Positions 15,391 through 17,525 of a stretch of DNA of 53,053 bases are shown in pieces. The notes under the pieces were generated by a model. That model had not been told where the DNA came from and did no database searches. It worked only from the letters and a program-made list of their open reading frames with translations. Source of the stretch: a virus (Duplodnaviria > Caudoviricetes); IMG/VR virus record IMGVR_UViG_3300006919_000073, positions 1 to 53,053 of that record. One strand, written 5' to 3'. The number at the start of each line of letters is the position of its first letter. The first letter of the stretch is position 1. A program made the position numbers and the translations under genes.

Positions 15391-15501
15391 ATGCACCCCT
15401 ACGAAGTATTCGACACACCTGAGTTCAAAGCCTTGTCTTGGTACAAGCGCTTTGGCTACCGGCTACGCGTTGCATTCTTCGAGTTTATTTCTATGTACTA
15501 A
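15391..15501 (+). CDS. 36-aa micro-protein (not in ORF track)
   Basis: MHPYEVFDTPEFKALSWYKRFGYRLRVAFFEFISMY*; its TAA overlaps the next ATG (TAATG). Confidence 0.55.
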   Translation: MHPYEVFDTPEFKALSWYKRFGYRLRVAFFEFISMY

Positions 15502-15689
15502 TGTTTCATTGGACTTCTGTAAGGATGGTGTACCTGCTCATGTCAGCAGTACTCATCGTCGCATACGCAGCCCAGTCTTGGGGTGTGGTTCTCTTTGTAT
15601 GTGCCATGCTTCAACTCGGCGTCTGGACAAAGTTTTGCCCCTCTAAGTGGTTCTTTGAAAAGATCGGCTTTAAGAAATGCCAGCTCTGA
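15501..15689 (+). CDS. small two-TM membrane protein, DUF2892/YgaP-TM-like
   Basis: Two hydrophobic helices followed by G.WTKFCP..WFFEKIG, resembling the DUF2892 GxxxxCP motif; coupled start at 15501. Confidence 0.6.
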   Translation: MFHWTSVRMVYLLMSAVLIVAYAAQSWGVVLFVCAMLQLGVWTKFCPSKWFFEKIGFKKCQL

Positions 15690-16558
15690 CCGGCATATCA
15701 AAAGTCTCTCGGTACGCTCTTGCTATTGCTGGTCTTATCATGTTCACCTTCTTTGGTGTTCAGACGTGCATTGTCTTTGAGCTATGCCCTCCGAGCTATG
15801 AGCTAGCCGCCTTTGGCTATTGCTGTGTTATTGCTTTTATGCCTCCATTCTTTTGGGTAGTTCGTGAGTTTCTACAGAACAAAGCTGCCATCAGTAAGTC
15901 ACTGTCTCAGAAGAATATCTACCTCGAACATGCTGCCAAAATTATCCGGCACGACATGCACTCGGGTATCAATACCTATTTACCACGCGGCATTAAGAGC
16001 TTGAAGCGTCGTCTGTCTGAGGATGACATCAAAGCACTGAAGATTAAATCTCCTTTGCAGCTGATAGAAGACGGGCTACACCATGCTCGTAAAGTATATA
16101 GCGGCGTGTATGAATTCACCAACCTTGTTAAGGAAGGATCTGAAATGCACAAGGAGGAATGCAATATCAAGAGCATTCTAAATGACTACCTGCGCCTGAC
16201 AGCCTACAAGAATCAAGTCATATTAGATGACAATCTCCCTACCATTCTAGCAAATGAAGCGTTATTTTGTACAGCAGTAGACAACCTCATTCGGAACGGC
16301 CTTAAGTACAACGACAGCCCAACCAAATTCGTTAAGATCTACTACAAGGAACCGTTCATCTTTATTGAAGATAACGGAAGAGGCATGACCCAGGAAGAGT
16401 TTGAATTCCTGTCCAAGCCGTATAAGAGAAGAGAGAATCAGAAAGAAGCAGGTACCGGACTGGGCCTCAACATCTGTATTGAAATCCTGCGAGAGCACGG
16501 ATTCACTTTACGCTCAACACGACTGGACACTGGAACGCTACTAACAATAAAAATATGA
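15677..16558 (+). CDS. membrane sensor histidine kinase
   Basis: Two N-terminal TM helices; H-box IIRHDMHS; N-box DNLIRNGLKY; G1 EDNGRGM; F-box region; G2 GTGLGL. Confidence 0.92.
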   Translation: MPALTGISKVSRYALAIAGLIMFTFFGVQTCIVFELCPPSYELAAFGYCCVIAFMPPFFWVVREFLQNKAAISKSLSQKNIYLEHAAKIIRHDMHSGINTYLPRGIKSLKRRLSEDDIKALKIKSPLQLIEDGLHHARKVYSGVYEFTNLVKEGSEMHKEECNIKSILNDYLRLTAYKNQVILDDNLPTILANEALFCTAVDNLIRNGLKYNDSPTKFVKIYYKEPFIFIEDNGRGMTQEEFEFLSKPYKRRENQKEAGTGLGLNICIEILREHGFTLRSTRLDTGTLLTIKI

Positions 16559-16992
16559 TTGACTCCCTCCTGCTCATTGACGACGAAAACCTATTCCACT
16601 TGGTTTTTGAAGACGCCTGCTCTCTCCTCGACATGGCGCTTTCAATTGAGGCGCTGGACTCGAGCGATGAGGCTGATCGTAAGTTTCGTGAGTGGTTTCC
16701 CAATGACCCAAATCACGAACGCCCTGACTGTGTATTTGTAGACCTCAACATCATCGGCTCTTCTTTCGATGGTATTGAGATGATTCGCAAAATCAATACT
16801 GACTACGGCAATGGCTGCGTGATTGGAATCATCAGCTCATCCGAGGACCAAGAAGAGATTGACAAAGCCAAAGCAGTTGGCGCACAATTCTGGATCATCA
16901 AGTCTGACGACATCGAGCCACGTCTCGAAGATTTCAAGGCAGACTATCCCGGCTATCAGGATAAGTCTGCGCCGTTCAAAGTATACAGATGA
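16555..16992 (+). CDS. single-domain response regulator (receiver only)
   Basis: LLIDDE acidic pocket, phospho-acceptor in VFVDLN, DGIE, ISSS, GA..WIIKS; no output domain. Confidence 0.9.
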   Translation: MIDSLLLIDDENLFHLVFEDACSLLDMALSIEALDSSDEADRKFREWFPNDPNHERPDCVFVDLNIIGSSFDGIEMIRKINTDYGNGCVIGIISSSEDQEEIDKAKAVGAQFWIIKSDDIEPRLEDFKADYPGYQDKSAPFKVYR

Positions 16993-17525
16993 ACCTAGGC
17001 CCAGCAGCAGAACAAGCTATTCTCAAGCTCCAGTCCCGCAAGGTTTACTTAGAAGGTAATATCCTTAAGGTTCTGGTATCAGATAACGAAGAGTTTATCA
17101 GCTACCTGCGTAAGTGCAAGGCCCGCGACATTGACTCGCGTAAGAAACGCTTGGCTATCACCAAGCAGGTACAAGAGCAGAACAAGGAATTGCTTGATGC
17201 CGCTGCTGAGAACTCTCAGCTTACCCAAGAGTTAGAAGAGGCACTTAAAGCAGCGGAGAAGCTACGCGATCGAGCTGTAGAAGATTTAGAGACCCTACAA
17301 AAGAAGACTCAGTTTGAGTTGGTAGGTAAGATTGTACGCGTCGCACTGGCTACCATTTTATCCATCGGCTTCATGGTATCCGGGCTGTTCATCATCAGCA
17401 TGTTTACCGACAACAACAATGCTATCGTAGAGTCTACCTGGAGCAACCTCATGGGTATTCTCTTGACAAACTCCTTCTCTATTGTCGGCACCATCATGGG
17501 TGTCAAGTATGCAACAGAGAAGTAA
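16989..17525 (+). CDS. coiled-coil protein with two C-terminal TM helices
   Basis: Heptad-rich QVQEQNKELLDAAAENSQLTQELEEALK, then two hydrophobic segments; ATGA-coupled to the response regulator. Confidence 0.75.
   Translation: MNLGPAAEQAILKLQSRKVYLEGNILKVLVSDNEEFISYLRKCKARDIDSRKKRLAITKQVQEQNKELLDAAAENSQLTQELEEALKAAEKLRDRAVEDLETLQKKTQFELVGKIVRVALATILSIGFMVSGLFIISMFTDNNNAIVESTWSNLMGILLTNSFSIVGTIMGVKYATEK

Follow-up and report, generated by a model that had tools for sequence, protein, structure and literature searches.

A region of a freshwater phage genome encodes what we interpret as a two-component signalling cassette carried by the phage, with a dedicated membrane effector of a virus-only family as its last product and signal-gated control of lysis timing as its role; we put the probability of this reading as a whole at roughly one half. 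The window, by which we mean the whole 53,053-nucleotide stretch of DNA analysed, comes from a phage record that is 66% complete. The cassette consists of five genes on the plus strand: pep36 (15391..15501, 36 amino acids (aa)), tm62 (15501..15689, 62 aa), a histidine kinase, HK (15677..16558, 293 aa), a receiver-only response regulator, RR (16555..16992, 145 aa), and a coiled-coil protein with two transmembrane (TM) helices, CC (16989..17525). An earlier, sequence-only reading had described these genes as overlapping or coupled. All five open reading frames (ORFs) were found at these positions, and the genes are translationally coupled, with overlapping junctions readable from the sequence: pep36 and tm62 share 1 nt in TAATG, tm62 and HK overlap by 13 nt, and the HK–RR and RR–CC junctions are each ATGA. 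The longest ORF for tm62 spans 15438–15689; the start codon that is conserved, the ATG at 15501, yields the 62-aa protein. Contigs from RNA libraries, one spanning 15478–15686 (tm62) and others 16553–16846 (RR), offer a weak hint of transcription, as the libraries may contain DNA, and coverage in the RNA runs X19 and X21 is limited to 8 and 9, respectively, of the 30 bins of the stretch. Between positions 15000 and 18400, scans gave 7 promoter-like sites where 4.8 were expected and 1 terminator-like site where 2.7 were. The Bacteroidota −7 motif TANNTTTG was counted 16 times (27.6 expected), one of the sites being 15235–15242, and an Rfam scan of 14900–17800 gave a tRNA as its sole match.

HK is identified by its HATPase_c domain (46.7 bits against a Pfam cut-off of 26.4, E = 5 × 10−12). 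Two TM helices, judged by eye to span approximately residues 13–34 and 43–62 with an 8-residue loop between them, lead directly into the presumed DHp helix that carries H92, which is followed by the HATPase_c domain. The sequence RHDMHSGIN (R91-H92-D93-M94-H95-S96-G97-I98-N99) is invariant in 21 of 21 aligned HKs, as are N203/N207, D232-N-G-R-G236 and G259-T-G-L-G-L264, and by their patterns we match them with the H, N, G1 and G2 boxes. This agrees with the earlier description of a kinase with all four boxes intact, the H box being presumptive. On the H-box pattern, H92 (codon 15950..15952, plus strand) is the presumed phospho-acceptor. The Pfam HisKA model had no match to the window HK at E ≤ 0.1. 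When searched against the PDB, the HK family profile matched HK853 and other solved kinases (E = 1.2 × 10−13) in an alignment that begins only in the second DHp helix. The input end of HK varies among relatives, being two TM helices only, two TM helices plus a PAS domain, or a soluble GAF-PAS-PAS arrangement, while RR and the C-terminal hairpin of CC remain constant.

RR contains Response_reg as its sole domain (34.6 bits against a Pfam cut-off of 30.2, E = 2.4 × 10−8). All 19 aligned RRs share the residues D9, D10, D63, S94-96 and K116 and the stretch C59-V-F-V-D63-L-N65; the single residues presumably form the receiver pocket (acidic pocket, phospho-Asp, Ser/Thr and Lys switch), in agreement with the previous assignment of a receiver-only regulator with intact pocket residues. 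By the receiver-domain pattern, D63 (codon 16741..16743, plus strand) is the presumed phosphorylation site. Because the RR family profile recovered no solved receiver from the PDB at E ≤ 10−3, only two designed proteins, a fold search was used instead. The AF2 model of RR (pTM 0.73, pLDDT 71) has the (βα)5 order, and Foldseek matched it to the receivers of Spo0F, CheY, Spo0A and DesR (probability 1.0, TM-score 0.6–0.8), to which it is 12–23% identical. Beyond the receiver fold, RR has a conserved helix and a short strand at its C terminus (aa 121–144) and no output domain. Mean column identity across the 19 sequences is 87%. Since RR is a receiver domain only, its control must run through protein contact.

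The first two genes encode small proteins. The acidic N terminus of pep36 is followed by a basic/hydrophobic helix, and searches of Pfam and PHROG assigned it to no family. Its homologues (ORFs of 33–71 aa, 29 distinct peptides) occur in 44 of 83 loci, share the motif EFKxLPWxKRxWIRLKVAFF..ISM and always lie directly 5′ of tm62 or of a holin gene that precedes tm62. The tm62 protein is predicted to have two TM helices and carries an invariant C-P-S-K-W motif. It belongs to an ORF cluster found in 51 of 81 loci and has 20 invariant columns in 14 sequences. It had been read as DUF2892-like (YgaP-like_TM, PF11127), an assignment that we do not retain, as the window tm62 matches 0 Pfam families. 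YgaP-like_TM is matched by 4 of 14 relatives (best E = 1.9 × 10−4), DUF4395 is matched by 5 of 14, the Atlas search gave a lead to DUF2892 with a score of 0.89 only, and the tm62 family profile had no match in the PDB. The likeness to DUF2892 may be used as a lead, in the sense of a resemblance.

CC divides into three parts. The N-terminal input module (aa 1–68, 16989..17192, plus strand) is delimited by the alignment, the AF2 model and the fusions described below; it contains the conserved residues E22-G23-N24, R51, R54 and K59-Q-V-Q62-x-Q-N65 and is modelled with helices at 5–16 and 25–28, after which a long helix begins. This helix is single and unbroken over aa 34–139 (pLDDT 84) and includes the coiled-coil/signalling segment (aa 69–112, 17193..17324, plus strand), the length of which differs among relatives through insertions of up to approximately 80 residues. 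A further helix spans 145–177. The C-terminal TM hairpin (aa 113–178, 17325..17525, plus strand), our proposed output module, is the best-conserved part of CC, with T150-W151-x-N153 and G156-I-L-L-T-N161 through M170-G-V-K173 invariant. The family is compact, with 248 representatives at E ≤ 10−3 among 1.84 billion, and its Atlas clusters are 100% Viruses. Its profile gave just chance coiled-coil matches in the PDB (E ≥ 0.07), and searches of Pfam and PHROG found no known holin or antiholin family. We also considered that CC might be a paralogue of two neighbouring membrane-protein families in related loci, c4 and the holin 4_1 family c5; hhalign gave a probability of approximately 1% for each comparison, which lends this idea no support.

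The domain combinations in which CC segments recur were more informative about its function. In P0149, the CC hairpin follows a GAF domain and a coiled coil, and in P0170 and P0174 it follows two or one PAS domains, respectively, and a coiled coil, such that PAS or GAF replaces the N-terminal module. Conversely, P0252, P0258, P0264 and P0269 join the CC N-domain to HisKA and HATPase_c as soluble kinase cores; P0252 was not found in viral contigs. The sensors themselves are related: the PAS domains of P0170 are 37–39% identical to the PAS insert of one cassette HK (E = 2 × 10−24), and the GAF domain of P0149 is 57% identical (E = 2 × 10−81) to that of a soluble HK which, in locus L174, is followed by RR and CC. 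None of the 80 loci that encode the PAS–hairpin form contains HK, and none contains RR. CC is thus modular, and the shuffling of its hairpin and its N-domain each onto other domains is new here. Fusion of the hairpin to PAS/GAF and of the N-domain to kinase cores puts the TM hairpin at the output end, and these swaps lend independent support to the earlier proposal that CC is the output of the circuit. A further fusion, P0192, in which the N-domain is joined to a partial FecCD permease, was treated as a probable assembly chimera. In a predicted complex, CC residues 1–112 and RR scored 0.27 (mark 0.32), a value that weighs on neither side of the proposed RR–CC binding.

The distribution of the cassette was examined with RR as the probe in viral contigs; a word-pattern search with HK gave only 2 loci. 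RR relatives were found on 101 IMG/VR viral stretches, 80 of which were kept. Across loci L003–L083 (n = 81), HK and RR are present in all 81 and CC in 80, in identical order; the one locus without CC stops at the contig edge, and CC lies 3′ of RR in all 79 loci that hold both genes on the contig. In a more divergent set, in which RR is 62–70% identical, 66 of 75 loci have HK and RR, and 74 have CC. The sequence-only reading had raised the question of whether gene order is conserved in phage contigs, and it is, in 81 further viral loci and in these 66 divergent ones. The flanks of the window cassette (GGCT, PDDEXK, UDG and the downstream small ORFs) occur in 0 of L003–L083. Median dN/dS, calculated from unsaturated pairs because synonymous sites are mostly saturated (dS is saturated or undefined in 203 of 250 RR pairs), is 0.075 for RR, 0.18 for HK, 0.22 for CC and 0.23 for tm62, indicating purifying selection on all four tested genes. 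A shared order in 81 other viral loci combined with purifying selection is far beyond chance. Recent horizontal spread as the cause of the high RR identity is ruled out by the saturation of synonymous sites. Median identity across loci is approximately 83% for RR versus 57% for CC, and the far stronger conservation of RR suggests that it may also contact another conserved partner, possibly a host protein.

The family spans several hundred IMG/VR contigs. RR has 3,838 cluster matches at E ≤ 10−3, which possibly include distant receivers; the best 120 of these are all at least 82% identical. A Bacteroidota metagenome-assembled genome (MAG) contig, L088, encodes an RR-like protein at 35% identity, with neither HK nor CC. 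In 50,697 GenBank phage records, RR and CC had no match, HK had only partial matches of 23–27% identity, and the window DNA matched 19 records, each through a tRNA only. The previous assignment to a crAss-like phage is tentative. The best PolA matches are crAss-like, at 25–29% identity, and the structural match is a partial one to Flavobacterium psychrophilum phages (26% identity over 15% of the length of the window protein); capsid, portal and terminase genes were not identified in the 66%-complete record.

The genes surrounding the cassette in related phages point to lysis. We counted five kinds of peptidoglycan hydrolase: Amidase_2, GH19, Peptidase_M15_3, DUF5675 and phrog_3000/33083. Of 81 loci, 45 have a hydrolase no more than 5 ORFs from the cassette, and in the other 36 none was recognised within this distance; with the c4/c5 membrane proteins included, the count of 45 rises to 59. 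All 27 members of c5 match Phage_holin_4_1 (best E = 2.3 × 10−8), and in 26 of 79 loci this holin gene ends less than 350 bp from the HK start, between pep36 and tm62. The c4 protein is a putative holin, judging from its size, two TM helices and position; PHROG gave no useful family for it, with 2 single-member matches among 29 members. For the PAS-fused form, 64 of 80 loci have a hydrolase at most 1.5 kb away, and 71 have either a hydrolase or c4/c5. In L118, for example, the order is a c4-like TM protein, PAS-PAS-hairpin, a GH19 lysin and a holin 4_1. Among five large genomes, two (187–248 kb) have their sole GH19/Amidase_2 match 1.6–2.1 kb from RR, and three have their detected lysins 13–73 kb from it. 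Because the cassette loci are kin to one another, these counts are not independent events. In the window, no lysis gene adjoins the cassette and no homologue of c4 or holin 4_1 was found; the probable lysis genes (DUF5675 and a 3-TM holin-like protein) lie at 48.6–49.8 kb, 31 kb away. Lysis timing, one of the roles suggested earlier, is therefore favoured by the gene neighbourhood of relatives and is not visible in the window itself.

These observations are consistent with the following mechanism. A signal would reach HK, which in the window might be an intramembrane or membrane-state cue, possibly with tm62 and pep36 as input modulators. HK would autophosphorylate on H92 and pass the phosphate to D63 of RR. 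Phospho-RR would then dock on the N-terminal domain of CC, the long helix of which would relay the change to the TM hairpin. The hairpin, in turn, would act on or within the holin–endolysin machinery as a signal-gated antiholin or holin, allowing the phage to match its lysis timing to the condition of the infected cell. In this scheme, lysis as the role of CC is proposed from gene neighbourhood in relatives only. We tentatively suggest, at somewhat less than even odds, that the CC hairpin represents an undescribed class of phage lysis protein, a holin or antiholin gated by a fused PAS/GAF domain or by a kinase–receiver relay.

Other explanations must be weighed against this mechanism. It is very improbable that the cassette is a chance-captured bacterial operon or an assembly chimera without function for the phage. 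The automatic names of RR matches are generic ('CheY-like chemotaxis protein', 'NarL/FixJ family response regulator') and the cassette occurs in four MAG bins from different phyla, as capture would allow, but its order is kept in more than 100 viral contigs under purifying selection. Moreover, two scans of the genome contigs of 185,579 species genomes found HK-RR-CC on those 4 MAG contigs only and no bacterial chromosomal relative, and the two MAG contigs examined both carry strong PHROG phage families, including a virion structural protein. A chimeric junction is not indicated by the available evidence: the independent contig L002 is 100% identical across GGCT-PDDEXK-UDG-pep36-tm62-HK, thereby spanning the upstream junction, and two other DNA runs cover the stretch from end to end at an even depth of 14–19. 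The description of a self-contained phage sensory circuit is thus upheld, as the genes are conserved as a unit in viral contigs and no chromosomal operon was found. A less remote, although still unlikely, alternative is that both circuit and membrane effector exist as described but serve an output other than lysis timing, with the hairpin altering the host membrane in another way, as in superinfection exclusion, phage competition, altered proton-motive force or transport, or a carrier-like slowdown. The cassette would then have lysis genes as neighbours merely because membrane-acting accessory genes gather there. The distant lysins of the window and of three large genomes, the 36 loci with no recognised hydrolase nearby, the lack of homology between CC and holins, c4 or c5, and the auxiliary nature of the other neighbours (RNR, PhoH, YceI and SNase) are in keeping with such an output. 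It accounts less well for the PAS-fused hairpin gene, which in many loci lies between a small TM protein and an endolysin or abuts the endolysin, for the holin 4_1 gene inside the cassette, and for the recurrence of the same neighbourhood with five hydrolase kinds and three input architectures.

The strong constraint on RR raises another possibility, that RR mainly targets a conserved host protein, as a hub, phosphate sink or cross-talker, and that CC is a kinase co-sensor or scaffold instead of the output. The dN/dS and column identity of RR are as expected with an invariant partner, HK itself lacks an extracytoplasmic sensor, and the CC N-domain serves as the N-terminal input of soluble kinases and can therefore sit upstream of a kinase. 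However, the hairpin is fused to PAS/GAF where HK and RR are absent, a layout of effector under sensor and not of co-sensor; the same PAS/GAF types feed either a kinase or a hairpin; and CC is invariably 3′ of RR. We accordingly regard the host-target explanation as rather unlikely and retain signal-gated lysis timing as the preferred role.

Lysis timing determines phage burst size and fitness, and the known lysis controls are the holin clock and, in T4-like phages, superinfection-sensing antiholins. The phages described here carry a whole signalling pathway, wired to a virus-only membrane module that is often near holins and endolysins. If the lysis reading is true, many phages in the environment monitor the condition of the cell they infect and set the time of killing accordingly; if the hairpin is indeed gated as proposed, large uncultured freshwater and marine phage groups time lysis by host energy, redox, metabolite or membrane state. 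The genes also constitute a compact, orthogonal kinase–receiver–membrane-effector set, and the natural series in which one output stands under 2-TM, PAS or GAF inputs makes the question directly testable. Among the best-ranked abstracts of the open full-text literature, a body that excludes subscription journals and supplements, we found no described phage kinase–receiver–membrane cassette or sensor-fused lysis protein.

Under the lysis reading, the closest phage parallel is T4 lysis inhibition, in which the antiholins RI and RIII act on holin T as a phage-encoded, signal-dependent brake on the holin–endolysin system. RI is reported to bind the holin, and the DNA of superinfecting phages in the periplasm is believed to be what it senses (PMC8385771). 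The T4 brake is worked by small membrane or cytoplasmic proteins, without a kinase, receiver, PAS or GAF domain; searches of Pfam and PHROG families revealed no sequence relationship between its antiholins and CC, and the signal of the cassette is most likely cytoplasmic or intramembrane and not periplasmic. In bacteria, the LytSR two-component system is described as coupled to holin-like membrane proteins and autolysis (PMC5717393, PMC2996381). The LytSR systems of Staphylococcus and relatives, with LrgAB/CidAB, likewise combine a two-component system with holin/antiholin-like proteins, but they are cellular and the cassette is viral. LytR is a DNA-binding regulator of the LytTR type that acts on transcription. 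RR, by contrast, has Response_reg only and no DNA-binding output, and the cassette therefore resembles LytSR at most and is not a member. LiaFSR and BceRS-AB have intramembrane-sensing kinases and DNA-binding regulators and respond to bacterial cell-envelope stress. The cassette is similar to them in its kinase input, which is limited to two TM helices and a ligand-excluding short loop, and in the small membrane proteins encoded in the operon, and differs in its receiver-only regulator and viral operon; family searches linked none of tm62, pep36 and CC to LiaF or BceB. Among receivers, the 'cREC' domain of jumbo phages, described as kinase-independent, differs from the cassette receiver (PMC7824862), and a single-domain regulator acting as a hub has been described (PMC5964349). 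Like the single-domain regulators CheY, Spo0F, DivK and MrrA, RR is receiver-only with an intact phosphorylation pocket, and Spo0F- and CheY-type receivers are its nearest structural matches, to which RR adds the C-terminal helix and strand. Unlike the known single-domain regulators, the RR family is found only on viral contigs and the four MAG contigs.

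The five plus-strand ORFs that the sequence-only reading described at 15391-17525 are all present exactly as it gave them: pep36 (15391-15501, 36 aa), the small membrane protein tm62 (15501-15689, 62 aa from the conserved start), a histidine kinase (HK; 15677-16558, 293 aa), a response regulator (RR; 16555-16992, 145 aa) and a coiled-coil membrane protein (CC; 16989-17525, 178 aa). Their junctions, in order TAATG, a 13-nt overlap, ATGA and ATGA, are, as read from the DNA, the usual picture of translational coupling. The record that holds them is linear, with a length of 53,053 bp and a CheckV completeness estimate of 66%. 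Just upstream lies the sole tRNA of the window, tRNA-Leu(taa) (15137-15223, plus strand), at which the assembly graphs of other runs branch and to which DNA similarity to GenBank phages within 13000-19000 is limited. A very basic 44-aa ORF (start MARVKETIK; 15248-15381, plus strand) occupies most of the gap between this tRNA and pep36, and recurs on L002, an identical contig described below. The region upstream of the tRNA contains UDG, PD-(D/E)XK nuclease, GGCT and amidoligase genes and a replication block, in which a family A DNA polymerase, helicases and a primase are encoded. The amidoligase-like gene adjoins the gene with the gamma-glutamyl cyclotransferase domain (11481-13446, plus strand), a pairing that is common in phages.

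Downstream, the opposite strand carries small ORFs, then a 584-aa protein (18271-20025) with a C-terminal CHU_C type IX secretion sorting domain (E 1.1e-14), and then a single ORF of 4,969 aa (20029-34938); crAss-like phages typically encode giant virion proteins. The small ORFs, of 78, 52 and 105 aa, are convergent with CC (17526-18264, minus strand). By eye, the 52-aa ORF has a D-x-D-G-x-I-G-x-x-D loop with the look of a dockerin or EF-hand calcium loop; the 105-aa ORF has a lipobox-like LFVGC, and neither it nor the 78-aa ORF matched a Pfam or PHROG family. The sorting domain suggests, from sequence, a phage protein exported through the type IX secretion system of a Bacteroidota host, and its position beside the cassette, together with a Flavobacterium-phage match, hints at the same host. 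The proposed crAss-like affiliation is a tentative one, drawn only from polymerase identity of 25-29%. The window's polymerase also matched MT837804.1, an 8,466-bp gut 'Bacteriophage sp.' fragment in GenBank (29% identity, E 9e-53), beside which, on the opposite strand, is a weak HK match (23% identity, E 4e-4); this fragment may be a distant gut-phage counterpart. Near-identical DNA occurs in freshwater metagenomes, and marine plankton runs contain smaller shares (0.16-0.23).

A chimeric assembly or a bacterial operon carried as a passenger is one alternative reading of the cassette. We consider this very improbable, given the identity of a second contig, the even depth and the absence of a close bacterial chromosomal relative from the species genomes scanned. 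That second contig, L002 from IMG/VR, matches the window at 100% identity from GGCT, across the nuclease, UDG, pep36 and tm62, into HK. At least 0.84 of the sampled words of 14400-18300 occur in freshwater DNA runs of seven samples, which possibly represent one campaign and one of which is possibly the window's own source. In two freshwater runs, contigs tile the entire stretch evenly, at depths of about 17-19 and 14-15, and break only at the tRNA and at a strain-variable patch (17327-17670); a single contig spans 15144-17356. The chimeric junction named as a possible refutation is thus contradicted by L002 and by the even tiling. An intact chromosomal operon was likewise looked for across 185,579 species genomes, and none was found. 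A first scan of these genomes returned no cassette relative, and a second, with the RR alignment, returned five loci. Four are contigs of metagenome-assembled genomes (MAGs) binned to four different phyla, which carry HK-RR-CC with RR 63-69% identical; the two that were examined match PHROG families strongly, a virion structural protein among them. The fifth locus, L088:7947-8399 in a Bacteroidota MAG, codes for a receiver of 150 aa with 35% identity to RR; it has no HK or CC nearby and is the closest possibly cellular relative found. Among 50,697 GenBank phage records, RR and CC had no match and HK had partial matches only (23-27%).

On viral contigs the cassette is widespread and its order is fixed. 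A word-pattern scan with RR gave 101 relatives, of which 80 were kept; with L003, which came from a separate HK-based search and shares its contig with L013, these make up 81 loci (L003-L083). By tblastn, HK (51-74% identity) and RR (77-88%) are present in 81/81 loci, and CC (41-60%) follows in constant order in 80, the sole exception ending at a contig edge, so the gene order is indeed conserved among phage contigs, as had been proposed for checking. The window's flanking genes are absent from these loci, save for one 30% match of the CHU_C protein, and the flanking ORFs cluster into at least eight unrelated neighbourhood types. Five large genomes (117-248 kb, three at least 98% complete) also carry the cassette, and a search of limited sensitivity detected in them no homologue of the window's polymerase or of the capsid-like protein of another locus. 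In 203 of 250 RR pairs, synonymous divergence is saturated or undefined; in the remaining pairs, median dN/dS is 0.075 for RR, 0.18 for HK, 0.22 for CC and 0.23 for tm62. Because synonymous sites are mostly saturated, the high RR identity reflects long purifying selection, and recent spread is ruled out as its source. In a collection of 5.8 billion proteins, RR matched 3,838 clusters at E<=1e-3, possibly including distant receivers; the best 120 of these are all at least 82% identical and carry only generic CheY-like or NarL/FixJ names.

The complete kinase-receiver pair with intact motifs that had been claimed is borne out by Pfam matches and invariant residues. HK matches HATPase_c at 46.7 bits (cut-off 26.4), and the window's copy has no match to Pfam HisKA. 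An alignment of 21 members shows invariant R91-H92-D93-M94-H95-S96-G97-I98-N99, N203/N207, D232-N-G-R-G236 and G259-T-G-L-G-L264, and the family profile matched HK853 and further solved kinases (E 1.2e-13). The input region of the window's HK, read from its sequence, consists solely of two hydrophobic helices (~aa 13-34 and 43-62) and an eight-residue joint, which makes it similar to the intramembrane-sensing kinases. RR matches Response_reg at 34.6 bits (cut-off 30.2); D9, D10, D63, S94-S96 and K116 are invariant in 19 sequences, in which mean column identity is 87%. Its AlphaFold2 model (pTM 0.73, pLDDT 71) has (beta-alpha)5 order with an additional C-terminal helix and strand, and Foldseek gave a probability of 1.0 against the receivers of Spo0F, CheY, Spo0A and DesR. 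By every testable feature, RR belongs to the single-domain receiver class. Homologues of pep36 were recovered from 44 of 83 loci; they comprise 29 different peptides, 33-71 aa long, with EFKxLPWxKRxWIRLKVAFF as their common motif. A tm62 ORF cluster is found in 51/81 loci. The 'DUF2892-like' label given to tm62 is a resemblance only: the window's copy matched no Pfam family, YgaP-like_TM matched 4 of 14 relatives (best E 1.9e-4), and the Atlas lead is only 0.89.

CC is a conserved membrane partner confined to viruses. It matched no Pfam or PHROG family above noise, and its Atlas clusters are 100% viral; a profile search of 1.84 billion representatives returned a compact family, with 248 members at E<=1e-3 and 185 at E<=1e-10. 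The model (pLDDT 84) shows a small N-terminal domain, a helix at 34-139, a tight turn and a second helix at 145-177; within CC, conservation is highest in this turn and the final helix. Among the relatives, the C-terminal hairpin follows a coiled coil and a GAF domain in P0149 (Pfam 2.5e-17), two PAS domains in P0170 (PAS_3 2.5e-25) or one PAS domain in P0174 (PAS_3 2.3e-10). Conversely, in the soluble kinases P0252, P0258, P0264 and P0269 the CC N-terminal domain and coiled coil precede HisKA and HATPase_c; word patterns found none of these four in viral contigs.

The inputs of the cassette kinases are equally modular. Among the 79 HK ORFs of the first set, 43 are of the short, window-like size with only two TM helices and 34 reach at least 360 aa, the longer ones with a PAS-like insert between TM2 and DHp; in the divergent set of 75 loci, 42 of 66 exceed 480 aa. 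At L174, a soluble 643-aa HK, which we read as GAF-PAS-PAS-kinase (PAS by eye, from a pattern shared with the P0170 PAS), precedes RR and CC. The fused sensors resemble those of the kinases: the PAS domains of P0170 share 37-39% identity with the PAS insert in one cassette kinase (E 2e-24), and the P0149 GAF is 57% identical to that of the L174 kinase (E 2e-81). For the PAS-fused form, 253 relatives were found on viral contigs; 80 were retained (75-99% identity, full-length), and neither HK nor RR occurs in any of these 80 loci. The simplest reading is that the hairpin is one membrane output that can be driven in two ways, one being a cytoplasmic sensor fused to it and the other the relay of kinase, receiver and CC N-domain. 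This reading supports the earlier proposal that CC is the output, and would place RR signal entry at the N-domain. A complex prediction of CC residues 1-112 with RR scored 0.27 against a mark of 0.32, a value that speaks neither for nor against binding.

Relatives of the cassette frequently lie among lysis genes. The hydrolase-type neighbours are Amidase_2 with a PG-binding domain, phrog_3000/33083 lysin-like proteins, GH19, Peptidase_M15_3 and DUF5675, a Pfam family of unknown function that we assume to be a hydrolase and include in the hydrolase counts; it adjoins the cassette in seven loci, none of them the window. Two further neighbours are c5, a 139-aa protein with a Phage_holin_4_1 match in 27/27 members (best E 2.3e-8), and c4, an 82-aa two-TM protein without a family. 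Within five ORFs of the cassette, a hydrolase of these five kinds is found in 45/81 loci (16 of 35 with full flanks), c4 or c5 in 51 and either type in 59, counts that overstate independent events because the loci are mutually related; by distinct neighbour architecture, the hydrolase figure is 43/73. In 26/79 loci no more than 350 bp separate the end of the holin 4_1 gene from the HK start; this gene then lies within the cassette, after pep36 and before tm62. The PAS-fused loci have a hydrolase within 1.5 kb in 64/80 cases and a hydrolase or c4/c5 in 71/80, and where the flanks on both sides reach 3 kb or more, 33/39 have a hydrolase within 3 kb; for the divergent set, the share within 1.5 kb is 46/75. 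At L118 the order is RNR, a c4-like protein, PAS-PAS-hairpin, GH19 lysin, holin 4_1 and two ORFs that look like spanins by eye. In three of the 22 PAS loci without c4/c5 (L111, L115 and L128), a crude hydropathy scan showed the fused protein to be the sole ORF with a predicted TM helix within ~2.5 kb of the GH19 lysin, and the hairpin might therefore itself be the holin in some phages. Cluster c8 (L058:5097-6290 and relatives, 12 loci) comprises proteins of ~400 aa that combine membrane segments and a long coiled coil with EF-hand matches below Pfam cut-offs (E about 1e-4), often encoded after lysis genes or CC.

These observations suggest that the HK-RR-CC cassette is a gated lysis-time control, a model to which, taken whole, we assign a probability of about 0.5. 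HK would sense a membrane-level cue, possibly with tm62 and pep36, and would phosphorylate RR at D63; phospho-RR would bind the CC N-domain, and the hairpin would then act as a gated antiholin or holin that sets lysis time.

Some of the evidence points elsewhere. The window's own cassette has no adjoining lysis gene; the phage's own lysis genes are probably a DUF5675 gene (49241-49753, minus strand, E 2.3e-25) and a weakly matched GTA_holin_3TM-like gene for a 3-TM holin-like protein (48662-49111, minus strand, E 1.3e-3), both 31 kb away, and a GH19-like domain lies within an 822-aa ORF (37488-39956). In the five large genomes, the sole GH19/Amidase_2 matches lie near RR in two, at distances of 2.1 and 1.6 kb, and far from it in three, at 13.5, 73 and 68 kb. 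Pfam, PHROGs and hhalign against c4/c5 revealed no homology of CC to these two proteins or to a known holin. Some other role at the membrane, such as superinfection exclusion, would accommodate these distances and leave the hairpin as the output; in view of the lysis neighbourhood of so many relatives, we regard it as unlikely. A receiver directed at the host, with CC as a co-sensor, seems to us about equally doubtful. In its favour, the far stronger conservation of RR than of CC points to an additional conserved partner; on the other side stand the loci in which the hairpin is fused to its sensor and both HK and RR are missing.

The cassette has a fair chance of representing a new class of signal-gated lysis control. 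In the open full-text literature, which leaves subscription journals and supplements outside, none of the best-ranked papers described a phage cassette of kinase, receiver and membrane protein, or a PAS- or GAF-fused protein of a lysis cassette, and the exact phrase 'phage-encoded histidine kinase' and five variants of it are absent. The receiver domain described for jumbo phages in PMC7824862 is a different, kinase-independent domain. T4 lysis inhibition, as described in PMC8385771, serves the purpose proposed here, with none of its parts in the cassette. LytSR-LrgAB, as described in PMC5717393 and PMC2996381, likewise couples a two-component system to holin-like proteins, but RR has no DNA-binding domain, which places the cassette outside the LytSR family. 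What is new here is phage two-component signalling wired to a new effector family.
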